Shown here piece after piece: positions 840-26,214 of a stretch of DNA of 35,046 nucleotides; position 1 is the first letter of the stretch; every line of letters starts with the position of its first letter. The notes under the pieces were generated by a model. It was not told the origin of the DNA. It saw only the letters and a program-made list of their open reading frames with translations, and searched no databases. The translations under genes were made by a program, and so were the position numbers. The DNA is from Abditibacteriaceae bacterium. GTDB taxonomy: Bacteria; Armatimonadota; Abditibacteriia; Abditibacteriales; Abditibacteriaceae. The stretch covers positions 1 to 35,046 of the forward strand of contig JANMKN010000021.1 in NCBI GenBank assembly GCA_031372065.1, in the 5' to 3' direction.

Positions 840-1802
840 ATGACCCAAATCGCGCACGGCATGAAAATTTTCACGGGCAATTCCAACCCGCAGTTGGCGC
901 AGGCCATTGCGGGTCATTTGGGACAATCGCTGGGAGAAATGGTCATTACGCGCTTTGCCGATGGCGAAATGCGTTGCGCGATTGACGAAAGCATTCGCGG
1001 CTGCGATGTTTTCATTATTCAGCCGACCTGCGCGCCGGTCAACGAAACGTTGATGGAACTGCTTATCATGTGCGATGCCTTCAAACGCGCCAGTGCGCGA
1101 CGCATCGTGCCGATTATGCCGTATTTTGGTTATGCGCGGCAAGACAAAAAAGTGCGTGCCCGCGAGCCGATAACCGCCAAATTGGTCGCTGATATGCTGA
1201 CTTTGGGTGGGGCGGATCGCATTTTTGCTATTGATTTGCACGCCGGGCAAATTCAAGGCTTTTTCGATTGTCCGGTAGATCATTTGTATGCACAGCCGCT
1301 AATCGCGCAATATTTAAGGGGCAAGGGCATCGTCGGCGAGAAAGTGGCGGTGGTTTCGCCCGATGTCGGCGGCGTGCAGCGCGCCACCATTTTGGCCGAG
1401 CGTTTGGGCGCTGATTTGGCGATTGTTGCCAAGCGTCGTCCCGAACCGGGCAAAGTCAAGATCATTGATGTTATCGGCGATGTCGCAGGGCAAATTTGCG
1501 TGTTGACCGATGATATGATAGATTCCGGTGGCACGTTTGTCGCTGCCGCCGATGAACTGGCGCGGCGTGGCGCGAAGGAAATTTACGCCTGCGCCACACA
1601 TCCCGTTCTGAGTGGCGAAGCGATTCATCGCTTGCAAGATTCACAAATCAAGGAAATTATCGTGATGGATACGATTCCAATTCATCCCGAACGGCGTTTG
1701 CCGAAAATTACCATTTTGAGCGTCGCCAAAGTGTGCGCCGATGCCATTTTGCGAATTCATAATGATGATTCGGTCAGCACCATGTTCGACGGTCACGATT
1801 AA
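840..1802 (+). CDS. prs: Ribose-phosphate pyrophosphokinase
   Basis: RFADGE, PYFGYARQDKK, DLHAGQIQGFF, VSPDVGG, DDMIDSGGT motifs. Confidence 0.98.
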   Translation: MTQIAHGMKIFTGNSNPQLAQAIAGHLGQSLGEMVITRFADGEMRCAIDESIRGCDVFIIQPTCAPVNETLMELLIMCDAFKRASARRIVPIMPYFGYARQDKKVRAREPITAKLVADMLTLGGADRIFAIDLHAGQIQGFFDCPVDHLYAQPLIAQYLRGKGIVGEKVAVVSPDVGGVQRATILAERLGADLAIVAKRRPEPGKVKIIDVIGDVAGQICVLTDDMIDSGGTFVAAADELARRGAKEIYACATHPVLSGEAIHRLQDSQIKEIIVMDTIPIHPERRLPKITILSVAKVCADAILRIHNDDSVSTMFDGHD

Positions 1803-2508: not shown

Positions 2509-2591
2509 CAGTGAGCAGTAGGCAGTGGGCAGAATTCAGTAGGAATTTCGTAGCAAACTTCTGAATCCTGACTACTGCCCACTGACCACTC
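2509..2591. repeat. Inverted element made of 7-bp subrepeats (CAGTRGG-like) between rplY and pth
   Basis: Left arm: cagtgag cagtagg cagtggg cagaatt cagtagg. Right arm: acttctg aatcctg actactg cccactg accactc. Confidence 0.75.
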
Positions 2592-2597
2592 TTCTTC

Positions 2598-3245
2598 ATG
2601 TTTCTCATCGTTGGACTTGGCAATCCGGGCGCGCAATATGCGCGCACGCGGCACAACATCGGCTGGCTTGTGCTGGATGAATTGGCGCGCCGCTGGACAA
2701 TCCAACTTTCGCGCACCAATTGCGAAGCGAAAGTCGGCGGCGGAATCATCGGCGAACAGCGCGCGACGCTTGCCAAACCGCAAACTTTCATGAATTTGTC
2801 GGGCCGCAGCGTGGCGGCGTTGATGCGCTACCAAAACGTGCCGCGCGAGCGCATTATTGTCATTACCGACGACCTCAATTTGCCAGTCGGCAAGCTGCGT
2901 TTGCGTCCCAACGGCAGTCACGGCGGGCATAACGGCCTCAAATCCATCGCGCAGCATTTAGGCGGTGATCAATACGCGCGTTTGCGTTTTGGCGTTGGCG
3001 AACCGCCGCAAGTCGAACGTGAAGCAAGCGGCACTAAAGACTTTGTCTTGCGCCCGTTTTTAGCCGATGAAATGCCCGCCATCGAAGCCGCCATTTCGCG
3101 CGCCACAGATTGTATTGAGACTTTTGTGCGCGAAGGCGTGGAAATCGCCATGAACCGATTCAATGCTGAACCGTCAGCCCCCAAGACCGTAAAAACTGCT
3201 CCTCAGCGAGTGATTGCACACGGCAACGAAAAGGGAAATTCATGA
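2598..3245 (+). CDS. pth: Peptidyl-tRNA hydrolase
   Basis: LIVGLGNPG..YARTRHNIG, KPQTFMNLSG, DDLNLP, GGHNGLKSI, RLRFGVG. Confidence 0.97.
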   Translation: MFLIVGLGNPGAQYARTRHNIGWLVLDELARRWTIQLSRTNCEAKVGGGIIGEQRATLAKPQTFMNLSGRSVAALMRYQNVPRERIIVITDDLNLPVGKLRLRPNGSHGGHNGLKSIAQHLGGDQYARLRFGVGEPPQVEREASGTKDFVLRPFLADEMPAIEAAISRATDCIETFVREGVEIAMNRFNAEPSAPKTVKTAPQRVIAHGNEKGNS

Positions 3246-3703
3246 AACAAACGATTTACAAAGGGCTTATTTTGCTGCTGCTTGGCGCAGTTTTGGTGGG
3301 CACGCCCAGTGTCATAGCCAAATCCGCTAAAAAAACGCCCGCAAAAGCCAAAACCGCCGCGCCGAAATGGGGCACATCCTACAAAGACGCGCTGACGCAA
3401 GCCAAAAAAACCGGCAAGCCCATTTTAATTGACTTCAATGCGACATGGTGCGGCCCTTGTCACATGATGGAAGACGAAGTTTTCAAAACGGCGGGCTTCG
3501 CTGCCGAAGCCAAAAAATGGGTTTTGCTGAACGTTGATGTGGACAAACATCCCGACTTAGCCCAGCATTACAACGCGAGTTCATTGCCACTGTTAGTCAC
3601 TTTGAGTCCCAAAGGCAAAACGATTTCGAGCCAAGCGGGTTATGGTGGCTACGATTATGTCATGGACTGGGTTAAAAGTTCTTACAAAAAAGCCAAAAAG
3701 TAA
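3242..3703 (+). CDS. Exported thioredoxin-family protein
   Basis: N-terminal signal peptide, K/A-rich linker, DFNATWCGPC active site; ATGA overlap with pth. Confidence 0.88.
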   Translation: MKQTIYKGLILLLLGAVLVGTPSVIAKSAKKTPAKAKTAAPKWGTSYKDALTQAKKTGKPILIDFNATWCGPCHMMEDEVFKTAGFAAEAKKWVLLNVDVDKHPDLAQHYNASSLPLLVTLSPKGKTISSQAGYGGYDYVMDWVKSSYKKAKK

Positions 3704-6267: not shown

Positions 6268-7026
6268 ATGCCTGCCAAACGAATTATTCCTGCCTTAGAC
6301 ATCAACAACGGGCGCGTGGTGAAATGCGTCAAGTTTGAAAATATGCGCGATGCCGGCGATCCTGTCGAACGCGCCGCTTATTACGATCAAGCGGGCGCCG
6401 ATGAACTGGTGTTTCTCGACATCACGGCCTCGCACGAGCGGCGTGGCATCATCGCCGATTTAGCCGCGCAAGTCACCGAAGAAGCGTTTATTCCTTTCAC
6501 TGTCGGCGGCGGCTTAAAGCGCACCGATGAAATGTCGCAAGTGCTTTCGGCGGGCGCGGACAAGATTTTCATCAACACGGCGGCGTTTGAAAATCCCGAT
6601 TTAATCGCCGAAGGCGCCGATAAATTCGGCGTGCAATGTATTGTAGTGGCGATTGACGCCAAGCAGCGCGGCGAAAATTCGTGGGAGGTTTATCTGCACG
6701 GCGGGCGCACGCCAACCGGCAAAGATGCCGTCGAATGGGCACGCGAGGCCGAAAAACGCGGCGCGGGCGAAATTTTGCTGACTTCGATGGACGGCGACGG
6801 CACGCAAGCCGGTTACGATTTGGAACTGACGCGCGCTGTGGCCGAAGCCGTGAATATTCCCGTAATTGCCAGCGGCGGCGCGGGCAATGTCGATCACATT
6901 TACGATGCGCTAACTTACGGCAAAGCCGAAGCCGCGCTCGTCGCTTCGATTGTGCATTACGGCATTTACAGCATTCGCCAAATCAAAGAAGAACTCGCCG
7001 CACGCGGCGTGGAAGTGAGATTGTAA
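6268..7026 (+). CDS. hisF: Imidazole glycerol phosphate synthase cyclase subunit
   Basis: [53 protein letters not shown]. Confidence 0.97.
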
Positions 7027-7034
7027 GGCAATTG

Positions 7035-7382
7035 ATGGGTGTAAAATACTTACCTGTATTTGCTTATGGCACACTGCAAGCCGATGGAGTTTCCGCATGG
7101 ATTCTCAAAGGCAAGTTAATGCGAGTTGCGCGAGCGTCCGCACGAGGCACGGTTCTATCAATAACCGCAGCCTATCCGACAGTCGTTTTCTCTAAAGGTG
7201 AGGAAATTATTGAAGGTGGACTATTGTGGATAGAGCCGGACTTGCATGAAGAAACAATTCGAGTGTTAGATCACTATGAGGGCCACCCTAATCTATTCAA
7301 AAGGATCAAAATCATAGTGTCTTGTAGTGAAGGGGAAGTGGAGGCATATGTTTATGAGTGGAAACAACGAGACGTGGGTTGA
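7035..7382 (+). CDS. Gamma-glutamylcyclotransferase (AIG2-like) family protein
   Basis: VFAYGTL, YP, G, LDHYEG, F/Y-KR, AYVYEW motifs. Real start is probably ATG 7035. Confidence 0.85.
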   Translation: MGVKYLPVFAYGTLQADGVSAWILKGKLMRVARASARGTVLSITAAYPTVVFSKGEEIIEGGLLWIEPDLHEETIRVLDHYEGHPNLFKRIKIIVSCSEGEVEAYVYEWKQRDVG

Positions 7383-7902
7383 ATATCTCAATGCAGCACG
7401 TCGGAAGTTACACATAGCGAAATACCATCTGGGAAAACTGGAAGTATTGGTCCGACCCGACAACCATTCCCAAGAACAGATTGCAATCCAAGCACACTTT
7501 GAAGGAGTATTGTTCGCTGTTATCGCAGCCGCAGATCAAATCGCAGAAGCAATTAATCTGGCGCAGCGGTTGGGTCTAAAAAATCCCAATTTACGGTGTG
7601 CTTTGGATAACGTGGAACCGTCTGAAGTATTCGATAAATTTAGTAGATGGTGGAATGAACCAATCATCCGTGATGTGAGGAACATTCGTCGTTTAGCCAC
7701 ACACCACCACTATAAGAAAAAACCTCCCACAAACCATTCAGAATCCGGTGGTCTGGTATTAGAGGTGGAACAGCCACAAGGCTCATCTCTTTATCGTGGA
7801 TCGCGGGAGTTAACGGCTTATAGCCGCGCAGTCGTCGAGGCTGCGAAACGCCTTGAACCATTGTTGATAGACCTTGAACGGCAACTCAGCAAGGGTGATT
7901 AA
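7348..7902 (+). CDS. Hypothetical all-alpha protein, possible HEPN-superfamily (Cthe_2314-like) RNase
   Basis: Helical pattern, FEGVLF..AAADQIA segment, and RNIRRLATHH (R-x4-H) motif; AT-richer than neighbours. Confidence 0.5.
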   Translation: MFMSGNNETWVEYLNAARRKLHIAKYHLGKLEVLVRPDNHSQEQIAIQAHFEGVLFAVIAAADQIAEAINLAQRLGLKNPNLRCALDNVEPSEVFDKFSRWWNEPIIRDVRNIRRLATHHHYKKKPPTNHSESGGLVLEVEQPQGSSLYRGSRELTAYSRAVVEAAKRLEPLLIDLERQLSKGD

Positions 7903-16372: not shown

Positions 16373-17058
16373 GATACAGCCTCTTTTTCGCGCACCAGCT
16401 GCACCAATTGTTCAATAACCTGCTGTGGCGAAAGATTATCGGTAAGGACGTGAATAGCGTCCGGCGCGGCTTTGAGCGGTGATGTTTTGCGTGTGCTATC
16501 ACGAAAATCGCGTTCAAGCACATCTTTTTCGGCTTCTTCAAGAGAAAACGGCGCCGCTTCGCCGGATTTTTGCCGCCATTCGCTCAAACGCCTTTGCGCC
16601 CGCTCGCGCGGCGTGGCTGTTAAAAAGATTTTCACATCGGCATCGGGGAAAACCACAGTTTGAATGTCGCGCCCTTCCAAAACTGCGCCGCCACAATCGT
16701 TTTCGCTGTCGCGCCCGATGCGTTTTTGCTGCGCCACAATTACTTCGCGCACGCCCGCCAAAGCTGAAATTTGCGAGGTGAAATCGCCGATTTGCGGCGT
16801 GCGAATAAAATCCGTCACATCACGCTCACCGACAAAGACGCGCGTGCCGCGCCCTCGCAAAGAAATCGGTAAATCGCGCGCCAGTTCGATAATTTCGGCT
16901 TCGTTTTCCGGCAAATTCAGCCCTTTTTCCAACGCGGAAAGCGCCACCGCGCGATACATCGCGCCGGTGTTGACATAGGCGAAGCCCAAACGCGCCGCCA
17001 ATTCTTTGGCGACGGTGCTTTTCCCAGCCCCCGCCGGGCCATCTATTGCGATTATCAT
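16369..17058 (-). CDS. cmk: Cytidylate kinase
   Basis: IAIDGPAGAGKST, TGAMYRA, EGRDI.TVVFPDA, RDFRDSTR..SPL. Confidence 0.96.
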   Translation of the reverse strand: MIIAIDGPAGAGKSTVAKELAARLGFAYVNTGAMYRAVALSALEKGLNLPENEAEIIELARDLPISLRGRGTRVFVGERDVTDFIRTPQIGDFTSQISALAGVREVIVAQQKRIGRDSENDCGGAVLEGRDIQTVVFPDADVKIFLTATPRERAQRRLSEWRQKSGEAAPFSLEEAEKDVLERDFRDSTRKTSPLKAAPDAIHVLTDNLSPQQVIEQLVQLVREKEAVS

Positions 17059-17122
17059 CGGCCCCAAAGTGTAGCGATAAAATGGCGCGTGCGCTTTGCC
17101 TCTCGGCGGCTCCGCCAAACGA

Positions 17123-17299
17123 CTGCGCGCCAGCGCGGAATTGCTGCGCGCCAGCGCGGAATCATTGCGCGCCAGCGCAGAATTGCTCCGCGCCAGCGCG
17201 GAATCACTGCGCGCCAGCGCGGAATCACTCTGCGCTGGCGCAGAATCATTGCGCGCCCGCGCAGAATCATTGCGCGCCAGCGCGGAATTGCTCCGCGCT
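17123..17299. repeat. Tandem array of about 8.4 x 21 bp (YTGCGCGCCAGCGCGGAATYR) with palindromic core
   Basis: Units at 17123, 17144, 17165, 17186, 17207, 17228, 17249 and 17270, plus a partial unit; lies between lhgO and cmk. Confidence 0.92.
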
Positions 17300-18495
17300 C
17301 ACGCTACAATCTGCCGCGCGATTTCTTTACCGATTTCCAGCGATGCCGTCGCAGCGGGCGACGGCGCATTCAAGACGTGCAGGGCGCTTTCATCCCGCAC
17401 TAATAAAAAATCATCTTCCAAGTGGCCATCGGGATGCAAGGCTTGAGCGCGCACGCCTGCTGCTGACGGCACTAAATCGTCGCTTTGCACTTCAGGAATC
17501 AGCGTTTGCAAACTGCGCGTGAAAATGGATTTATTGAACGAACGCCCCATTTCGCTAAGTCCCACGCGCGGATAACGCAGCGCCAACTTGTGAAGGCCGG
17601 AAAAGGTTAGCGTTTCCCACAAATCGCGTGCGTTAAAGTCAAATTTCTTGTAACCCTCGCGGCGCAAAGCTAAAACCGCGTTCGGGCCGCAGTGAATGTT
17701 GCCGTCTATCATGCGCGTGAAATGCACGCCCAAAAACGGAAAGGCCGGGTCGGGAACGGGATAAATTAAATGCTTCACCAAAAAGCGTTTTTCCGGCTTT
17801 AACTCGAAATATTCGCCCCTGAACGGCACAATTTTCACATCAGTTTGCGCGCCCGCCATGCGCGCGATGCGGTCACAATGCAAACCGGCGCAATTAACTA
17901 AAAAGTTCGCTTCAAAACTGCCCCCTGTCGTTTCAATCGCATAACCACCCGCCGATTTTGGCAAAGTTTGCACGCCAGCGCCCAATTGAATTTCACCACC
18001 GCGTTCTTGAATGAGTTGCGCTAATTTTTCGCAGACATTTTTGTAATCGCAAATGCCGGTTGACAACACGCGCAGCGCCGCCACGCAATGCAAATGCGGC
18101 TCGATTTCTTGAGCTTGCGCGGGCGTTAATTTCTCAACCGCGAGGCCGTTTTCAATGCCGCGCTGCTGCAAATTTTCGAGGCGTGGAATTTCATCTTGGC
18201 GCGTGGCGACGATAACTTTGCCGCAGACTTCGTGCGCAATGTCATGCGCGCGGCAAAATTCGATCATCGCGGTGTTTCCGGCTCTGCACAACTGCGCTTT
18301 CAGGCTGCCCGGTTTGTAATAAATGCCCGAATGAATCACGCCCGAATTGCGCCCGGTTTGATGCGCGGCAAGGCGCGTTTCTTTTTCGAGCAGCAATAAT
18401 TTCGCGCCGGGCCTCGTTTGAAGCAACGCCGCGCCGGTGGCAAGCCCGATAATGCCGCCGCCGATGATAACGAAGTCGTAACGCTTGCTTATCAA
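17299..18495 (-). CDS. lhgO: L-2-hydroxyglutarate oxidase
   Basis: IIGGGIIGLA, HQTGRNSGVIHSGIYY.PGSLKA, PFRGEY, IYPVPDP.FPFLGVH, GVRAQA, NAPSPAATASL. Confidence 0.93.
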   Translation of the reverse strand: MISKRYDFVIIGGGIIGLATGAALLQTRPGAKLLLLEKETRLAAHQTGRNSGVIHSGIYYKPGSLKAQLCRAGNTAMIEFCRAHDIAHEVCGKVIVATRQDEIPRLENLQQRGIENGLAVEKLTPAQAQEIEPHLHCVAALRVLSTGICDYKNVCEKLAQLIQERGGEIQLGAGVQTLPKSAGGYAIETTGGSFEANFLVNCAGLHCDRIARMAGAQTDVKIVPFRGEYFELKPEKRFLVKHLIYPVPDPAFPFLGVHFTRMIDGNIHCGPNAVLALRREGYKKFDFNARDLWETLTFSGLHKLALRYPRVGLSEMGRSFNKSIFTRSLQTLIPEVQSDDLVPSAAGVRAQALHPDGHLEDDFLLVRDESALHVLNAPSPAATASLEIGKEIARQIVA

Positions 18496-18563
18496 AATTT
18501 TAGTTCCCGCGATGCCGTTTAATTTAGCATACTGCTCGTGATTCCATTTCGATCAAGGACAAC

Positions 18564-19559
18564 ATGAAAAATTATCTTCCGGCGCCTGCGCGCTATGAAA
18601 GCATGAAATACAATCGCAGCGGACGCAGCGGCTTGAAATTGCCCGCCGTTTCGCTGGGTTTGTGGCACAATTTCGGCGGCGTGGACACTTTGGAAAACGC
18701 CCGCGCTATGTGCCGCACGGCGTTCGACCACGGCATTACGCATTTCGATTTAGCCAACAATTACGGCCCGCCGCCCGGCAGCGCCGAAGAAAATTTCGGA
18801 CGCATTCTCGACCACGATTTGCGCCCGTGGCGCGACGAACTCATCATTTCCAGCAAAGCCGGTTACGGAATGTGGCCCGGCCCTTATGGTGATTTCGGCT
18901 CGCGCAAATATCTTTTGTCCAGCCTCGATCAAAGTTTAGGGCGCATGAACCTTGATTATGTGGACATTTTTTATCATCACCGGCCCGATAACGAAACGCC
19001 GCTCGAAGAAACCATGAGCGCGCTCGACCAAGCCGTGCGCTGCGGCAAGGCGCTTTATGCCGCGATTTCCAATTATCCCGCCGAAAAAGCTGCGCAAGCT
19101 GCCAAAATCGCGCGCGAACTCGGCACGCCGCTGCTCATTCATCAACCGGCGTATAGCATTTTCAATCGCTGGGTCGAAAAAGATTTGCTGGCGACTTTAG
19201 AAAGCGAAGGCATCGGCTGCATCGCCTTTTCGCCGCTGGCGCAGGGAATGCTGACCAATAAATATCTCGGCGGCATTCCGGGTGATTCACGCGCCGGAAA
19301 ACCCAACGGTTTCTTGCGCCCGCAACACGTCACCGATGAAGCCTTGGGCAAAGTGCGCGAATTAAATGAACTGGCAGAGCAGCGTGGCCAAACCTTGGCG
19401 CAAATGGCCTTGTCGTGGGTTTTGCGGCACCAAAACATGACTTCGGTTCTCATCGGCGCCAGCCGCCCGCAGCAAATCACCGATTGCGTCGGCTGCTTAA
19501 AAAATCTCGAATTTTCCGCCGATGAATTAGCGAAAATTGATGCCATCGCGCCTGCTTGA
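18564..19559 (+). CDS. L-glyceraldehyde 3-phosphate reductase (YghZ/Gpr-type aldo-keto reductase)
   Basis: SLGLWHNFG, HFDLANNYGPPPGSAE, SKAGY.MWPGPYG, DYVDIFYHHRPD. Confidence 0.93.
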   Translation: MKNYLPAPARYESMKYNRSGRSGLKLPAVSLGLWHNFGGVDTLENARAMCRTAFDHGITHFDLANNYGPPPGSAEENFGRILDHDLRPWRDELIISSKAGYGMWPGPYGDFGSRKYLLSSLDQSLGRMNLDYVDIFYHHRPDNETPLEETMSALDQAVRCGKALYAAISNYPAEKAAQAAKIARELGTPLLIHQPAYSIFNRWVEKDLLATLESEGIGCIAFSPLAQGMLTNKYLGGIPGDSRAGKPNGFLRPQHVTDEALGKVRELNELAEQRGQTLAQMALSWVLRHQNMTSVLIGASRPQQITDCVGCLKNLEFSADELAKIDAIAPA

Positions 19560-19572
19560 ATTAAAGAGTAAT

Positions 19573-19662
19573 GAATGGAGCGCGGAACGTCGCCAGTCGC
19601 CCAAAGAGCACTCGAAACAGCTTGGATTGATGTTTTGCATCGGGCAGTTCCGTGTTCCATTC
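19573..19662 (+). repeat. REPIN-like long hairpin after the AKR gene
   Basis: gaatggagcgcggaac / gttccgtgttccattc: 16-bp stem whose two mismatches are both G-U. Confidence 0.65.
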
Positions 19663-19687
19663 TTGAAACGTGACATGTTTTGTGAAA

Positions 19688-20311
19688 ATGAAATCTCTGC
19701 ATTACTCACGCTTTACCACAATTGGTTTCGTTTGTGTTTTGCCTTTGCTGCTGGGAATTGCTTTATGTTTCAAGCAACATCAGCGGATTGCTACACAGGA
19801 ATTGCGCTGGGCTTTGGGCCGCAACAACTATCAATCCGTGCGTAAATGGGCCGTGCAAGCGGGCGATGTCAATGTTAAACCTCTCAAAGAACTTCAACCC
19901 GGCGACTTTGAATTTACCTCACAAGATGGAAGCCCTTACTACGGCGATACGCCTCTTACGATGGCCGTAAAGCATGATGACATAGAAACCATACGCCTTT
20001 TGCTGCAACGGGGGGCAGATGTTAATCAAACAATTGAGGGGAGATTCGTTCCCATTGCGCCTTTAATGACCGCTATAGAACACAGTAACGCCGAAGCAGT
20101 GGAACTTTTACTGGCGCATGGGGCCTCGGCCAATATTGGTGATGAGCATGGGTTTACAGGTTTGGAAATTGCCGAAAATATCGGAAATAATCCCTACGCC
20201 GATTGGCGTTGGGGTGGATTTTCCAAACACAAAGACGCAACCCTGCCTCAAATCGTGAGCCGCAAGAGAGTTGTTTGGCTGTTGAAACAAGCTGGTGCTT
20301 TTGCCCAGTAA
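19688..20311 (+). CDS. Ankyrin-repeat protein with N-terminal membrane anchor
   Basis: GDTPLTMAV..LLLQRGADVN, PLMTAI..LLLAHGA, G.TGL.IA repeats. Confidence 0.85.
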   Translation: MKSLHYSRFTTIGFVCVLPLLLGIALCFKQHQRIATQELRWALGRNNYQSVRKWAVQAGDVNVKPLKELQPGDFEFTSQDGSPYYGDTPLTMAVKHDDIETIRLLLQRGADVNQTIEGRFVPIAPLMTAIEHSNAEAVELLLAHGASANIGDEHGFTGLEIAENIGNNPYADWRWGGFSKHKDATLPQIVSRKRVVWLLKQAGAFAQ

Positions 20312-20336
20312 AAACACTGAAGCGGTCATGTGTTTT

Positions 20337-21317
20337 TTAGTCTCTCCAGCGGATGCCGGACTGAATATCGCGCAGCATTTTGATGTAGCTTTCATAGCGC
20401 GCAGCGTGGATTTTTTTATCCTCCACGGCGGCGCGCACCGCGCATTTGGGTTCGTGATCGTGTGTGCAATCGCCGAATTTGCAGTTTTCCAAAAACGGCA
20501 GAAATTCGGGAAAACACTGGTCTAAATTTATTTCCTGCTGCTCAAACAAAACGACTGTTTTTACGCCCGGCGTGTCGGCTAAATAGCCGCCGAAATCCAG
20601 CGGATGCAAGGAAACATCGGTTGTGGTGTGGCGACCTTTGCCGATGTCCATCACGTCGCCGACCCACAAATGCAATCCCGGTTGCACGGCGTTGACAAGC
20701 GACGATTTCCCCACGCCCGAACTGCCCAAAACAGCCGAAATGCGGTCTTTGAGATGCTTTTGCACTTCTTCGAGGCCAATGTCTTCGTCAGCGGCTGTTA
20801 AAACAACTGGATAACCCAAACTTTCGTAAAGTTTTTGAATCGGCGCGATTTCTTTTTTGAGTTCGCGCTTTTTCATGAGGTCTATTTTGTTGAAGCAAAT
20901 CAGCGCTTTTAATTCGTTCGATTCGGCCAAAACCAAAAAGCGGTCAAGGCGATGCGTGTTTAAATCCGGCTCGCGCACCGACAGCACAATGACAACTTGA
21001 TCGAGATTTGCCAGCGTGACTTGCGCCAGTTTGCCGACGCGTCCACGCGACAGCGTTGAACGGCGCGGCAACACTTGTTCGATTGAGCCTTCGCGCAAGT
21101 AAACACCATGCACATTGGTGCCCGTAGTTTCGAGAGAAAGCACACTCACTCGGTCGCCGACGACAACCGGCTGTGTGGTGGTTTGGCGCCCTTTTTTGAG
21201 GAGTCCGCGAATCTGACAAACACGCGGCGACGGGTCTGTATCGCCTTCGATGTCCACTTCATATAAGCCGCCACCAATAGCGCGCGTGACGGTTCCGATT
21301 AAAAGTTCTTCGGTCAT
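20337..21317 (-). CDS. rsgA: Ribosome small subunit-dependent GTPase A
   Basis: VVGDRV, NKID, GSSGVGKSS, GRHTTT, DTPG, CKFGDCTHDHEPKC zinc site. Confidence 0.96.
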   Translation of the reverse strand: MTEELLIGTVTRAIGGGLYEVDIEGDTDPSPRVCQIRGLLKKGRQTTTQPVVVGDRVSVLSLETTGTNVHGVYLREGSIEQVLPRRSTLSRGRVGKLAQVTLANLDQVVIVLSVREPDLNTHRLDRFLVLAESNELKALICFNKIDLMKKRELKKEIAPIQKLYESLGYPVVLTAADEDIGLEEVQKHLKDRISAVLGSSGVGKSSLVNAVQPGLHLWVGDVMDIGKGRHTTTDVSLHPLDFGGYLADTPGVKTVVLFEQQEINLDQCFPEFLPFLENCKFGDCTHDHEPKCAVRAAVEDKKIHAARYESYIKMLRDIQSGIRWRD

Positions 21318-21372
21318 AGCTTTTAGCGATTAGCTTTTAGCGGTTAGCCATAACAGCTAATCGCTAAAAGCT
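21318..21372. repeat. Inverted element of 7-bp subrepeats (TAGCNNT) filling the C26-rsgA spacer
   Basis: agcttttagcgattagct (21318-21335) / agctaatcgctaaaagct (21355-21372), perfect 18-bp IR. Confidence 0.8.
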
Positions 21373-22109
21373 CACCGCTTTTTGCTGGCCTCCGAAACCA
21401 GCCAATCAAATAAGGGTTGAAACTGCGGGTAAAGAGCGGCGATTTCTTCGGGATGAAACTGCACGCTGAGGATTGGCTTGCCGTCGCTGCTTTCCAAGCC
21501 TTCAATCACGCCGTCTTTGGCGAGGCTGTTGATTTTTAGCCCCGGCGCAACATCTTTAGCGGCTTGATGATGATACGAATTGACGGCCATTTTTGTGTTG
21601 CCCAAAACCTGCGCCAAAAGCGAGTTGGCTTCGATATCAATCGAATGCAACAGCGTAACTTCCAGCCCATCGCCGTAATGCTTGCAAGCGCCCTCGACTT
21701 GCGAGGGAATATCTTGAACCAAAGTGCCGCCAAGCGCCACGTTAAGCAGTTGCAAACCGCGACAAATGCCCAAAATTGGCACGCCTTTTTCTATGGCGGC
21801 GTTGGTCAGCGCGATCTCTAACGCATCGCGTTTGGGGTCTTGATATTTGCTGGTGATATGCGGCTCTTCGCCGTAATTCAGCGACAAAATATCGCCGCCA
21901 CCGGTTAGCAAAAGGCCATCGGCGGCCTCCAGTGCGGCCAGAGTTGTGGCTTCATCGGTCACGCAAGGCAGCAAAAGCGGCACGCCACCGCTACGCGCGA
22001 CAGATTGCGTGTAGTCAATGTCGCAGCCGTTCCATACGGTCTGCGGTTTCGAGTCGCCCGCGCTTTCGTTTTTGCGCCCGGCGGTGATGAGAATAATCGG
22101 TTTTTTCAT
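21372..22109 (-). CDS. Peptidase C26 / gamma-glutamyl-gamma-aminobutyrate hydrolase-family glutamine amidotransferase
   Basis: DGLLLTGGGD, RD..E, LGICRGLQ, GGTLVQD, VNSYHHQA, DGVIE, VQFHPE. Confidence 0.92.
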   Translation of the reverse strand: MKKPIILITAGRKNESAGDSKPQTVWNGCDIDYTQSVARSGGVPLLLPCVTDEATTLAALEAADGLLLTGGGDILSLNYGEEPHITSKYQDPKRDALEIALTNAAIEKGVPILGICRGLQLLNVALGGTLVQDIPSQVEGACKHYGDGLEVTLLHSIDIEANSLLAQVLGNTKMAVNSYHHQAAKDVAPGLKINSLAKDGVIEGLESSDGKPILSVQFHPEEIAALYPQFQPLFDWLVSEASKKR

Positions 22110-22130
22110 GGGTGAAATGGTTTCACGGAG

Positions 22131-22168
22131 AAAACAAAAACGGCTGCCCCATGAAGGAGCAGCCGTTT
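22131..22168 (-). terminator. Attenuator terminator upstream of the C26 gene
   Basis: Minus strand reads AAACGGCTGCTCC-TTCAT-GGGGCAGCCGTTT TTGTTTT. Confidence 0.8.
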
Positions 22169-22190
22169 AATATCGGAACAAAAAGCCGAG

Positions 22191-22253
22191 TTAAAACGGG
22201 CCATCACAGAGGCGAGGAGAAAAAGAAAAGTTGAAAATAGAAACAATGAGCAT
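22191..22253 (-). CDS. Putative 20-aa leader peptide MLIVSIFNFSFSPRLCDGPF
   Basis: ATG 8 nt downstream of GAGGAGG (22262-22268); lies between a promoter and a terminator. Confidence 0.65.
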   Translation of the reverse strand: MLIVSIFNFSFSPRLCDGPF

Positions 22254-22292
22254 GGGGTTCGCCTCCTCGTGGATTTTTTAACAGCGCAAGGC

Positions 22293-22321
22293 ATTGTAGC
22301 GCTCGTTTTGTGCGGCGTCAA
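22293..22321 (-). promoter_or_regulatory. Sigma70-type promoter TTGACG-N17-TACAAT
   Basis: -35 at 22321-22316, -10 at 22298-22293, exact 17-bp spacer. Confidence 0.75.
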
Positions 22322-24147
22322 GCGATTTTTTCAACCGCTCCGTTATCCTCTTGAAATTGCGCCGCATAAAGGCGCGCATAGGCGCCGCTGCGGGCCAAAA
22401 GTTCGCTGTGCGTGCCGCGTTCGATGATACGTCCGTGTTCCAAAACAAGAATTTGATCGGCTTCCAAAACTGTTGACAAACGATGCGCGATGGCGAACGT
22501 TGTGCGGCCTTGCGACAGACGGTCAAGCGCATCTTGAATGAGACGTTCGCTGTGCGTATCGAGCGCGCTGGTCGCTTCATCCAAAATCAAAATGCGCGGC
22601 TCTTTTAAAATGGCGCGGGCGATGGCGATGCGCTGTTTTTGGCCGCCGCTGAGTTTGTAACCACGCTCGCCAACCAGAGTTTCGTAGCCATCCGGCAGCG
22701 TCATAATATGTTCGTGAATGGCCGCTGCTTTGGAAGCTTCAATGATTTGTTCATCTGTTGCATCGGGCCGTCCGTAGCGCAGATTTTCTTTGATGGTGTC
22801 GTGGACTAAATAGCTTTCCTGCGTGACGACACCAATGATTTGCCCGATGGATTCGAGGGCGAGGTCTTTCACATCATGGCCGTCAATCAGAACGTGCCCA
22901 CCACTTGCATCATAAAGGCGCGGGATAAGATAGGTCAGCGTTGTTTTGCCCGAACCGGAAGCGCCAACTAAGGCGATATGTTCGCCCGCTTTGGCGGTTA
23001 GAGAAACGCCGTCCAAGGTTGGCGCTTCTTGGTTTTCGTCGTAGTGAAAACTGACGTTTTCAAAAGTGACAGCGCCGGAAATTTCCGATGGTTTTAGCTT
23101 TTTTGCATCGGGCGCGTCGCGGATTTCCTGCGGCTTGTCGAGGTATTCAAAAATGCGATCAAAAAGAGCCAGCGCGCCAGTGATTTCGACTTGAATATTC
23201 AGCAAGTTCGTCAGCGGAAAAAACAAGCGCGATTGCAGCGAGGTAAACGCCACAATGGTGCCGATGGATAATGTCGGGTCGTTTTTTTCGACAATCAGCC
23301 AGCCGGCCAGCCAATATACCAAAACCGGCGTCACCGAAAAAGTCAGCATAATCACGCTGAAAAAGACACGCATCAAAATGCCCTGCTTCAGTTGCGAATC
23401 AGTGAGGAGTTGGTTTTCGCTCGCAAATTTCTCGCTGGTCAAACCGCGCCGCCCGCTGGTTTTGGTAAGCAGTGCGCCCGATACCGAAAGCGTTTCTTGC
23501 ATCGTGGCATTTAAATCGGCCAATTGTTGCTGCGCTACGCCGCGAATGCCGCGCGAATATTCACCGACATACGACGCGAAAAACGCAAAAAGCGGCAACA
23601 CGCCAACGCTGAGTAAAGTCAAGCGCCAATCCATGTAAAGCATGGCGACAATGGTGGAAAGCACTGTCGCGGCGTTTGATAAAACATTGGCAACCGTGTC
23701 GGATAACACGCCTTGCACGCCGCCGACATCACTGACCAAGCGGCTTTGCAATTCTCCAGTGCGCGTGGCGGTGAAAAAACGCAGCGACATTCCCTGCAAG
23801 TGATCGAAAAGCTGATTGCGCAAATCGCGCATGATGCGCTGCCCAACGGCCATCGAAAGGTAGCCATACCACAAGCCCAGCAGCGTGCCGCCGATAGTGA
23901 CAAGCAACGTTAGCAGCGTGTAATGTGTAACAAGGGGCAAGTTGCTTTTGCCCAGCCCTTGGTCAATGATAACGCGCAGATAAAACGGCGAAAGCAAGCC
24001 CATAGCCGCTGCCGCCAGCACTAAAAACGCAATAGCAGCCAGTTGCCCTTGATAAGGCTGGAAAGCGCGCGCCACGCGCTTCACCGTAGCGCGCGGAATC
24101 GGTTTGCGTTTGGGTTTTTCTTCGTTGTTAATTTTGGTTTCGGGCAT
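22318..24147 (-). CDS. ABC exporter, fused permease/ATPase (MsbA/ABCB type)
   Basis: TM domain plus GASGSGKTT, LSGGQKQRIAIAR, ILDEATSALD, IAHRLST. Confidence 0.95.
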   Translation of the reverse strand: MPETKINNEEKPKRKPIPRATVKRVARAFQPYQGQLAAIAFLVLAAAAMGLLSPFYLRVIIDQGLGKSNLPLVTHYTLLTLLVTIGGTLLGLWYGYLSMAVGQRIMRDLRNQLFDHLQGMSLRFFTATRTGELQSRLVSDVGGVQGVLSDTVANVLSNAATVLSTIVAMLYMDWRLTLLSVGVLPLFAFFASYVGEYSRGIRGVAQQQLADLNATMQETLSVSGALLTKTSGRRGLTSEKFASENQLLTDSQLKQGILMRVFFSVIMLTFSVTPVLVYWLAGWLIVEKNDPTLSIGTIVAFTSLQSRLFFPLTNLLNIQVEITGALALFDRIFEYLDKPQEIRDAPDAKKLKPSEISGAVTFENVSFHYDENQEAPTLDGVSLTAKAGEHIALVGASGSGKTTLTYLIPRLYDASGGHVLIDGHDVKDLALESIGQIIGVVTQESYLVHDTIKENLRYGRPDATDEQIIEASKAAAIHEHIMTLPDGYETLVGERGYKLSGGQKQRIAIARAILKEPRILILDEATSALDTHSERLIQDALDRLSQGRTTFAIAHRLSTVLEADQILVLEHGRIIERGTHSELLARSGAYARLYAAQFQEDNGAVEKIA

Positions 24148-24167
24148 TCAAGTTTTGGTAAGGCGAA

Positions 24168-24626
24168 TTAATACGGAAAAATGGCGCGCGGCGCTTGAGG
24201 ATATTTCTTTTTCGCTTCGTCAACAATGCTGACATCGGTGGCAAAACCCCAATGCAACACTTTCCATTTCTTGCCATTTTTATGCAGCAGCGCAGCCATT
24301 TCGCCCCAGAGGAATTTCTCGTCAATCGGTTTGCTGTCTTTATGCAGCGCGTTGCCTTGCATAAAAGCCCATCCGCTTTGCGTTTTCAGGCTGCCAACGC
24401 GAAAAATAACAGGAAACTTTGTCGTTTTTTGCACCGGAATGCGAAGCGCATCCATGATCGCTTTGCGTTCGGCGCCGCCTGGTTTGGGCGTGGTTGCTTT
24501 GCTTACTGTTTTGTTCGGCGCTTTGCTTGTTTTTGCTTTGAGCGCCGATTGCGCGGCAAAAACAAGCAAAAGCAATAGCAGAAGTTTTTTTATGTTGCTC
24601 CTTGCAAACCAAAAAGAATTTTTCAT
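24168..24626 (-). CDS. Secreted basic hypothetical protein
   Basis: Signal-like LLLLLLLVFAAQSA; ERKAIMDALR, GWAF, ALL, YPQAP.AIFP pattern. Confidence 0.7.
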   Translation of the reverse strand: MKNSFWFARSNIKKLLLLLLLVFAAQSALKAKTSKAPNKTVSKATTPKPGGAERKAIMDALRIPVQKTTKFPVIFRVGSLKTQSGWAFMQGNALHKDSKPIDEKFLWGEMAALLHKNGKKWKVLHWGFATDVSIVDEAKKKYPQAPRAIFPY

Positions 24627-24702
24627 GGTCGAATTACCGTTTCCAAAAAGATGTGGTTGTTTTAGCGTATCAAAACGTGGGCAAACAAAGAAACGAAATT
24701 TC

Positions 24703-26214
24703 ATGTTTAAAACAGCGATGTTCTCAATGGCTCTTAGCGCTTTGATGAGTGCCACGGTAATGGCGGTGCCTTTTAAAATTCAGGTCGTGGATGAGCAAAC
24801 CGGACGCGGCGTGCCGCTTGTGGAATTGAAAACAACCGACGCCACTACTTACTATACAGATAGCAATGGCATCGTGGCTTTCGAGGAGCCGGGACTGATG
24901 AATCAGGACATCTTTTTCTCATTGAAAAGTCATGGCTATGAATTTCCCCAAGACGGCTTTGGCAGTCGTGGTAAGGCGCTTAAAACTGTTCCCGGTGGCA
25001 GCGCGCAACTTTCCATCAAGCGCCTCAATATCGCCGAGCGACTTTATCGCATTACCGGGCCGGGCATTTACCGCGATACAGTTTTAGTCGGCGAAAAAGC
25101 GCCGCTCAAAGCGCCGCTTTTAAACGGAAAAGTGATGGGCCAAGATACCGTGATGTCCACGGTTTACAAAAACAAAATTTATTGGTTTTGGGGCGATACT
25201 TCGCGGCCCGCTTATCCTTTGGGCAACTTTCACACATCAGGCGCCACGTCGCTGTTGCCAAACCAAGGCGGGCTGAATCCAAGTGTCGGCATTGATTACG
25301 ATTACTGGGTGAACCAAGATGGTTTTTGCCGCGCCATGGTGGAACTGCCGCCCACCGCAGGCGCCACGCTGATTTGGATTGATGGCCTGATAACTTTGCC
25401 CGACGAGAAAGGCAACGAGCGCCTTGTTGGGCATTACGACAATTTGAAAAGCATGAGCGAACCGCTCGCGCAAGGTTTGATTGTTTTCAACGACCAAAAG
25501 CAAACTTTTGAGTTACTCAAGCCGTTCGACTTGAAAAATCCGCTGCACCCGCGCAATTATCCGTTTCGCGTGAAAGTGAAGGACGCCGATTATTTTTACT
25601 TCGCTTCGCCCTTGCCCAACGTGCGCGTCAAAGCCAATTGGAACGATATCCAAAATCAGGCGCTATATGAATCTTACACGCCGCTCAGACCCGGCACGCG
25701 CTTTCAAAAAGAGCAAACCGAACTCGAACGCGACGCGGCGGGCCAATTAGTGTGGACATGGAAGCAGAATACCGCGCCGCTCAACGGTTCACAGCAAAAC
25801 CAACTCATCAAAGCAGGAAAAATGAAGGCAGATGAGTCGCCGTTTCGCCTCACGGATAAAGATTCGGCCCAACCTATCGAAGCGCACAACGGCTCGGTTT
25901 TTTGGAATGATTACCTCAAAAAATATGTGATGATCTTCGTGCAGGCGGGCGGCAGTTCCTCGTATTTGGGCGAAATTTGGTATGCCGAAAGCACCACGCT
26001 CGAAGGCCCGTGGCAGAATGCCAAAAAGATTCTCACGCACGAAAAATACACCTTCTACAATCCCGTTCAACATCCGTTTTTTGACGACGGGCGTTTTGTT
26101 TATTTTGAAGGCACTTACTGCAACACATTTTCGGGCAATGATAACCAAACCCCGCGCTACGATTACAACCAGATGATGTATCGCTTGGATTTAAGCGACG
26201 CGCGCTTGCGTTAA
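24703..26214 (+). CDS. Secreted hypothetical protein (possible beta-propeller hydrolase-like)
   Basis: Signal peptide from ATG 24703; VVDEQTGRGVPLVEL, WFWGDT, YFEGTY, PRYDYNQMMYRLDL. Confidence 0.75.
   Translation: MFKTAMFSMALSALMSATVMAVPFKIQVVDEQTGRGVPLVELKTTDATTYYTDSNGIVAFEEPGLMNQDIFFSLKSHGYEFPQDGFGSRGKALKTVPGGSAQLSIKRLNIAERLYRITGPGIYRDTVLVGEKAPLKAPLLNGKVMGQDTVMSTVYKNKIYWFWGDTSRPAYPLGNFHTSGATSLLPNQGGLNPSVGIDYDYWVNQDGFCRAMVELPPTAGATLIWIDGLITLPDEKGNERLVGHYDNLKSMSEPLAQGLIVFNDQKQTFELLKPFDLKNPLHPRNYPFRVKVKDADYFYFASPLPNVRVKANWNDIQNQALYESYTPLRPGTRFQKEQTELERDAAGQLVWTWKQNTAPLNGSQQNQLIKAGKMKADESPFRLTDKDSAQPIEAHNGSVFWNDYLKKYVMIFVQAGGSSSYLGEIWYAESTTLEGPWQNAKKILTHEKYTFYNPVQHPFFDDGRFVYFEGTYCNTFSGNDNQTPRYDYNQMMYRLDLSDARLR

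Follow-up and report, generated by a model that had tools for sequence, protein, structure and literature searches.

How is a gene for a Peptidase_C26 hydrolase, followed directly by rsgA, controlled in an uncultured member of the Abditibacteriaceae, and what signal would the control respond to? The window, i.e., the whole stretch of 35,046 nt that was analysed, carries a short leader ahead of these two genes. The original prediction took it for an undescribed leader-peptide attenuator, in which a ribosome stalled in a small upstream ORF (uORF) would allow read-through, with an amino acid, a polyamine-type metabolite or an antibiotic as the stall signal.

Parts of the leader and their conservation

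On the minus strand, the parts follow in the order promoter, Shine-Dalgarno sequence (SD), uORF, inner hairpin, terminator with U-tract and C26 gene. The near-consensus promoter was located as predicted, with a sigma70-type -35 hexamer (TTGACG, 22316..22321) and a -10 hexamer (TACAAT, 22293..22298) separated by 17 nt. It scores 10/12 and is the best among 10 promoter-like sites in 18000-26000 (shuffle mean 5.9). Transcription would start near 22286, as judged from the promoter. The -35 hexamer overlaps the TGA stop codon of an upstream ABC exporter gene (22318..24147, minus strand), the end of which lies inside the promoter, so that its transcript would also enter the leader.

The SD (GAGGAGG, 22262-22268) and the uORF (20 codons and TAA, 22191..22253) were likewise present where they had been expected. 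By a rough count, GGAGG stands ahead of only about 88 of the 2230 long ORFs in this genome, and a perfect SD that is kept at the uORF is therefore informative. The SD and the 5′ arm of an SD hairpin together span 22259..22268, and the hairpin pairs 22266-22259 with 22215-22208, an anti-SD strand centred on codons 14-15. The predicted complementarity between codons 12-15 and the SD region was confirmed as 8 bp of pairing but not as 12 contiguous bases. Upstream of the SD, the 5′ leader strand (22270..22285) is predicted by folding to extend the SD hairpin over the 3′ end of the uORF, a lineage-specific anti-antiterminator extension that varies among genomes and is weak in the relative G001.

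Codons 17-20 and the stop codon (22191..22203) provide the 5′ strand of a predicted antiterminator, the partner of which is the 5′ arm of the terminator. The inner hairpin (22173..22189) fits both states and stacks within the antiterminator. The intrinsic terminator (22131..22168) has a 13-bp stem at 22138-22168 and a U-tract ending 21 nt from the C26 start, much as proposed; it is the top-listed of 20 terminator-like sites (-24.0 kcal/mol, z -6.96, 0/200 shuffles). In the same study, a second sample yielded a contig (depth 2.9) that is identical to the window over 22044-22395, which makes an assembly error in the leader unlikely.

Relatives were found by a C26 protein search of 41 genomes. 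All parts of the leader are present in all four genomes of one uncultured genus of Abditibacteriaceae, comprising the window genome (G000), G001, G002 and G003, and in G002 and G003 the leader lies directly ahead of the C26 gene. Pairwise identity is 1.00 for the invariant -35 and -10 hexamers and for the SD arm; the anti-SD strand is at 0.94, the antiterminator strand at 0.87 and the terminator at 0.84. The corresponding values are 0.57 in the promoter spacer, 0.46 in the uORF loop (codons 2-13) and 0.65 at four-fold sites of the C26 gene. The frame and stop codon of the uORF are kept in all four genomes, as the prediction required of relatives, with lengths of 20, 20, 20 and 19 codons, an SD spacing of 8-9 nt, and a distance from start to Arg of 39, 39, 39 and 36 nt despite indels.

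All eight pairs of the SD hairpin are kept in the four genomes. In the terminated fold, 4 of 24 pairs show a two-sided change, three of them among the four pairs of the inner hairpin and one among the 12 pairs of the terminator stem. The antiterminator helix (9 pairs, 97% of cells paired) has three one-sided changes and no two-sided change, so the anticipated stem covariation was found in the first two structures and not in the third. These pair counts are weak tests, resting as they do on four related sequences of which two are close (C26 97% identical). The leader layout is real and, by its conservation, under selection.

The leader seems to have gone undescribed, as originally suggested. 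The window gave no Rfam 15 match at the gathering threshold, and Rfam searches returned chance-level matches only over the leaders of L001, L003 and L004, and chance matches of miRNA type and similar over five C26 loci and six loci of a neighbouring gene, X (see below). Searches of the literature on Armatimonadota attenuation, rsgA/uORF attenuation and GCS2/C26, in which subscription papers were thinly covered, found no description of it. BLASTN detected no second copy in the window genome other than the terminator's own reverse match. A strict leader pattern matched 3 of 27 family genomes, missing the leader of G001; a covariance model (R1) applied to 31 genomes gave strong scores for its four training leaders only; and a scan of a collection of 185,579 species returned three loci, coinciding with the leaders of the three relatives. 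None of these three scans found a full copy outside the genus.

Weaker or partial candidates were discarded. Of 25 lower-scoring places of the covariance model, the 13 inspected were all ordinary terminators, promoters or palindromes; four matches in a metagenome pattern scan all fell in one antisense stretch of an unrelated coding gene; and eight viral matches all lay within open frames of 215-433 codons. Possible leaders upstream of the G016 and G013 orthologues of C26 gave no alignment with that of the window and were not counted. In the G016 orthologue (L037, ~6780-7720, plus strand), Ala replaces the catalytic Cys; the candidate leader there has a uORF of 24 codons, an SD/anti-SD pair and a long hairpin.

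Predicted folds and the stall signal

Folding of the 180-nt leader gives -51.1 kcal/mol (z -4.46, 0/200 shuffles), a value mostly derived from the terminator. Taken alone, the antiterminator (-11.5 kcal/mol, z -1.23, 26/200 shuffles) and the SD hairpin (z -1.06, 31/200) are unremarkable. As an isolated duplex, the antiterminator is equalled by 219, 5, 417 and 960 of 2000 shuffles in the four genomes, standing above shuffles in one of them, and the SD/anti-SD duplex is better than 1949-1997 of 2000. Both helices are supported by conservation and not by stability. In the folding models the proposed antiterminator forms in all four genomes, and it is conserved, but by itself it is no stabler than chance in the window genome and has no two-sided covariation.

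The effect of a translating ribosome was modelled by folding only the nascent RNA downstream of its footprint (9-18 nt) in the four genomes. With the P site at codons 1-13, predicted antiterminator occupancy is mostly 0.6-0.9, except in G003, where it is 0.2-0.4 over the first 4-7 codons. For every genome and footprint it drops at codons 14-15 and is 0 from codons 16-17 to the stop, suggesting that a ribosome finishing the uORF would favour termination and one stalled early would favour read-through. The full-length leader at equilibrium adopts the terminator fold wherever the ribosome is placed (P 0.89-1.0); the switch would thus have to be kinetic, with the choice made during transcription. 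Without a ribosome, antiterminator occupancy is predicted to be 0.43 in G000, 0.84 in G001, 0.41 in G002 and 0.03 in G003. The variation stems from the layout of the helices: the invariant SD helix shares no bases with the antiterminator, and the extensions that overlap it are lineage-specific and do so in three of the four genomes. The SD hairpin would therefore be inconsistent across genomes as an anti-antiterminator, according to these models.

Given its conservation in four of four genomes, the maintained frame and stop codon, and the covariation, the layout agrees with that of a ribosome-coupled transcription attenuator, and the locus is very probably regulated in this way. The preferred reading, at a probability of about 0.55, is that it senses ribosome stalling in general. 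The strong SD would be loaded with a ribosome before the SD hairpin can be closed by the anti-SD strand, which lies about 50 nt further downstream. If translation proceeded to the stop, the ribosome would cover codons 17-20, no antiterminator would form, and the terminator would win. If the ribosome stalled within the first ~13 codons, codons 17-20 would stay accessible and, enclosing the inner hairpin, would pair with the 5′ arm of the terminator, and RNA polymerase would read on into the C26 gene (and rsgA). The trigger would likely be a general one, such as ribosome-targeting antibiotics or a shortage of any charged tRNA needed for codons 2-14, because the peptide is conserved only where RNA pairing already fixes the bases.

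Several observations sit uneasily with a general stall sensor. The genes behind the leader are not among the known resistance or rescue factors, and a scan of the two ABC-F genes and hflX of the same genome saw no uORF attenuator leader at any of them. The antiterminator has no two-sided covariation and exceeds shuffles in one genome of four, the equilibrium fold of the full-length RNA is the terminator, ribosome-free occupancy ranges from 0.03 to 0.84, and seven amino acids (Ala, Cys, Glu, Gly, Met, Trp and Tyr) do not occur in the stall-sensing stretch of the uORF in any of the four genomes.

The foremost alternative, although an unlikely one, is a classical amino-acid attenuator that reads the Phe (or Leu, Ser or Arg) codons of the uORF. 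These four are the only amino acids common to the sensing stretch of all four uORFs, and they occur, with two to three Phe codons, within the permissive codons 2-14. The same genome has an Ile-rich leader before cimA, and U-richness could itself have been selected for Phe. According to a report on C. glutamicum aroR (Phe-Tyr-Phe), two Phe codons can suffice (PMC11802643). Against this, Phe codons within codons 2-13 of the four genomes number 10 in frame, compared with 15 and 16 in the other frames, and are not significantly above base shuffles in any genome (P 0.87, 0.70, 0.38 and 0.91); they are never in tandem, and their positions differ. The Phe/Ser richness noted originally thus reflects a U-rich loop, not codon selection, and the count argues against a Phe/Ser stall signal. 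The Arg-Leu codons form the anti-SD strand, and for this reason they are invariant at the DNA level. None of the four uORFs has Glu or Cys, the signals most to be expected ahead of a gamma-glutamyl cassette, in its sensing stretch; Gln is found only in that of G002, and no Phe-rich leader was seen within 420 nt of the pheS, pheA or DAHP synthase genes.

All four peptides end with the motif R-L-x-[DN]-G-x-F, but its conserved codons all lie on the anti-SD or antiterminator strands, where the silent changes are wobble-compatible. With no enriched codon, and with the conserved residues on RNA-paired bases, a general stall sensor is the simplest reading, and an antibiotic or general-stall trigger fits best, ahead of a Phe or polyamine sensor. 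One specific antibiotic mechanism was set aside: a macrolide arrest peptide of the R/K-X-R/K type, as named in PMC12121999. RLR occurs in two of the four uORFs, at the edge of or past the permissive stretch, and antiterminator occupancy with a ribosome arrested there is predicted to be 0-0.6 depending on the footprint and 0 at 15-18 nt.

The neighbouring genes and a probable ancestral cassette

The ABC exporter gene of the window genome has no other terminator before the leader, and this bears on the view that the leader is un- or weakly regulated: a generic terminator would end the ABC transcript and trim a strong promoter, the uORF being a passenger or encoding a small product. Similar terminator stems at ordinary gene ends elsewhere in the family, and the individual weakness of the alternative hairpins, would fit such an arrangement. 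It is nevertheless rather unlikely. The leader is kept with three different upstream neighbours, and the ABC gene is not adjacent to it in G001 (divergent neighbour) or G003 (different neighbour); the antiterminator and anti-SD strands are conserved well above neutral sites; and the uORF frame survives indels.

The C26 gene (21372..22109, minus strand) encodes a class I glutamine amidotransferase-like hydrolase of 245 aa with Cys116, His219 and Glu221 present. It matches Peptidase_C26 (PF07722, 211 bits, E 2.5e-62, residues 4-221), and the nearest solved structure is Lin1909 (3FIJ, E 3.9e-43), with PuuD (6VTV) at E 4.1e-25. Its designation as a PuuD-like hydrolase stands at the level of the C26 family, with the Cys-His-Glu triad shared by PuuD and Lin1909, but not at that of the PuuD equivalog NF008471 (101 bits, cut-off 266); unlike PuuD, its ancestral partners are a GCS2 ligase and protein X. 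Behind it, rsgA (20337..21317, minus strand; TIGR00157 above cut-off) specifies a small-subunit GTPase and is present in a single copy in the window genome. The 54-nt spacer between the two genes (21318..21371) is almost one palindrome (-31 kcal/mol, without a U-tract), and no promoter or terminator was called in it; each relative carries its own, different palindrome at this place. Elsewhere in the window, a tandem 21-nt repeat at 17046-17300, between an oxidase gene and cmk, gives repetitive spurious ORFs on both strands.

A longer unit, X - GCS2 ligase - C26 - rsgA, follows the leader in G001. Protein X (534 aa) has no Pfam match, and a resemblance to the galactose-mutarotase-like DUF4380/DUF5107 range is a lead only. 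A GCS2 orthologue is found in 14 of 401 genomes of the phylum; it is preceded by X at all 12 loci examined and followed by C26 at 9 of the 12 within the fetched stretch. GCS2 and C26 enzymes in other bacteria add glutamate to amines and remove it. The window genome (94% complete) has neither a GCS2 family match nor X. In the rsgA tree, G000 and G001 are grouped against G003 (95/95), and in the C26 tree G002 groups with G003; from these groupings, X-GCS2 was likely lost at least twice, the leader and C26 staying. The operon of the window is then likely a deletion remnant of a leader-X-GCS2-C26 cassette. The proposed C26-rsgA operon is retained as a gene order behind the leader, with the adjacency of rsgA limited to the genus. 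At 22 rsgA loci elsewhere in the family, C26 is within 1.5 kb at none and the upstream ORF is divergent at 18. With rsgA placed behind C26 in this genus alone, the leader is likely an element of the ancestral X-GCS2-C26 cassette, and rsgA may be a passenger.

G002 has two rsgA copies (L098 C9 and L123 C22), one of them 91% identical to that of the window and placed after an ABC gene, the other with apparent frameshifts. On the second rsgA contig, possibly a contaminant, the ABC gene stands directly before rsgA without a leader. The double rsgA is possibly due to bin contamination together with assembly error. In another genus, g2 (L008-L012, L017), the C26 orthologues of G004 and G012 follow what is presumably a MarR and efflux-pump pair, and G021 and G023 of the same genus have upstream sequence similar to that before C26 in G004 and G012.

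In other Armatimonadota, the X-GCS2 cassette has a different conserved leader, without an evident uORF, as seen in G005, G251, G175 and, less clearly, G372 (L078, ~3085-3330, minus strand; L080, ~1250-1500, plus strand; L085, ~2510-2760, minus strand; L139, ~6590-6800, minus strand). Its parts are a promoter, a GGCTGG...CCAGCC helix, a GGCRCCTGC arm and a terminator-like hairpin, and three of these loci gave no Rfam match. In G013 (L036, ~7300-7500, minus strand) and G061 (L082, ~1370-1420, plus strand), the sequence GGGCGGGAGTC...CGACCC[C]GGC stands before C26 or X and may be a repeat or a third type of leader.

The association with rsgA raises the possibility that the leader times initiation: the SD hairpin would leave the 30S subunit little time to load, and under a shortage of mature 30S subunits the uORF would stay empty, the antiterminator would form by default, and rsgA would be raised as feedback. 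The invariant 8-bp SD helix, lying clear of the antiterminator, resembles an initiation lock more closely than an anti-antiterminator; predicted ribosome-free occupancy of the antiterminator reaches 0.84 in G001 and some 0.4 in both G000 and G002; and leader, C26 and rsgA occur together in all four genomes even though X-GCS2 was apparently lost at least twice. The predicted value of 0.03 in G003 speaks against it, as do the leaderless rsgA contig of G002 and the 22 rsgA loci outside the genus, and the idea is improbable. Two reports add that expression of bmrB and cplR drops when uORF translation is blocked (PMC4191407; 10.1101/2022.12.05.519065). In a broader, still doubtful form, the leader would be a kinetic gauge of 30S initiation capacity: its strong SD would be locked by its own uORF some 50 nt later, and the antiterminator would form each time that no competent ribosome loads or that one stalls early. 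Such a gauge would have taken the place of the different, riboswitch-like leader carried by the X-GCS2-C26 cassette in other Armatimonadota, and would have put the sole rsgA under ribosome-quality feedback.

Very unlikely is a metabolite-dependent arrest peptide, in which a polyamine or gamma-glutamyl amine in the exit tunnel would match the ligase/hydrolase cassette: the chemistry noted above, the uORF-less terminator leader of the same cassette elsewhere (which suggests metabolite control) and the shared peptide ending are in its favour, but codons 2-13 share only 46% identity, every conserved C-terminal codon lies on an RNA helix (wobble pairs explain third-position C/U opposite G equally well), and in the folding model a ribosome arrested from codon 16 onward blocks the antiterminator instead of freeing it. 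On the same grounds of identity and pairing, the polyamine-type signal that had been proposed is unsupported.

Other leaders and known attenuators

The window genome has 286 strong promoter-like sites, of which 10, the window locus among them, have a leader terminator and a gene. It also has 1356 sites with an SD and a short ORF, 35 of them followed by a terminator, and two of these 35 have in addition a promoter and a 7-base anti-SD: the window leader and one (G000:C378:28045, plus strand, L088) with a promoter, a GGAGG-GTG 34-codon uORF with anti-SD, and a terminator, ahead of a second tRNA-Ser(GCT), an AAA_5 ATPase and a DUF2201 protein. Both uORFs contain F-S-F-S, with different Ser codons, a resemblance that has no comparative support since the AAA orthologues in six genomes lack the leader.

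Further leaders of this general form were seen. A promoter, a 71-codon uORF and a terminator lie ahead of an array of eight tRNAs (G000:C272:6866, minus strand), the genes after which are presumably of a putative RNA-repair type; a 59-codon uORF using all 20 amino acids, again with promoter and terminator, precedes tRNA His-Trp-Thr (G000:C4:10075, plus strand); and a promoter, GGAGG, a 48-codon uORF and a terminator precede rtcB (G000:C405:300, minus strand, joining C398). Before a cimA/LeuA-like gene (G000:C16:13440, minus strand, L089) there is a leaderless 19-codon Ile-rich uORF with a terminator, which appears to be a classical amino-acid attenuator. Ribosome-coupled attenuation is plausible in this organism given its other uORF-terminator leaders (cimA/LeuA-like, rtcB, spare tRNAs). 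The uORFs before rtcB and the tRNA genes use 16-20 amino acids, and the uORF ahead of the C26 gene lacks seven in its sensing stretch.

Among known systems, the leader resembles those of B. subtilis vmlR and C. difficile cplR, with a uORF and its SD in a 5′ hairpin, an antiterminator and a terminator, and with read-through expected upon an early stall (PMC9226507; 10.1101/2022.12.05.519065); its inner hairpin occupies the position of the vmlR pause hairpin (PMC9226507). It differs from what is described there in the length of the uORF (19-20 codons across the genus, compared with 3-4 codons ahead of ABC-F resistance genes), in using the 3′ end of the uORF itself as the antiterminator strand, and in a conserved SD helix that does not overlap the antiterminator. 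A hairpin over the downstream SD, looked for in the window genome against the vmlR/cplR layout, was not found. B. subtilis bmrB likewise combines a leader ORF with a terminator, an antiterminator and an anti-antiterminator and responds to several ribosome-targeting antibiotics, but its ORF is 162 bp long, holds the terminator and controls a multidrug ABC exporter (PMC4191407).

The actinobacterial whiB7/wblC uORF shares the logic predicted here, complete translation leading to the terminator and a stall to the antiterminator, and also varies in sequence between species (PMC10274678). In the same source, whiB7 uORFs are longer, Ala-enriched and cover most amino acids, whereas the window uORF is short and lacks seven in its sensing stretch, and its target, unlike that of whiB7, is not a regulator. 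Hairpins 1:2, 2:3 and 3:4, with termination favoured by a ribosome at the stop codon, are shared with E. coli trpL, pheL and pheST and C. glutamicum aroR (PMC11802643), but unlike in those classical attenuators the uORF has no enriched control codon and no codon link to the downstream C26, GCS2, X or rsgA genes. E. coli toiL is another uORF in which stalling at many positions suffices, as proposed here; it acts by translation attenuation and Rho, and the window leader has an intrinsic terminator (PMC12121999).

The attenuation mechanism is itself textbook, and no more than a single genus of uncultured bacteria has the element; it would be a known kind of switch on an unusual target. If the preferred reading of a general stall sensor is correct, ribosome-stall attenuation extends to a little-studied family and to such a target: a gamma-glutamyl ligase/hydrolase cassette that is as yet uncharacterised and, within the genus, RsgA, a GTPase of 30S maturation. 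If instead the leader gauges 30S capacity, an uncharacterised glutamyl ligase/hydrolase pair would be tied to translation stress. With two unrelated leader types on one cassette, the inducer of either would point to the function of the cassette.
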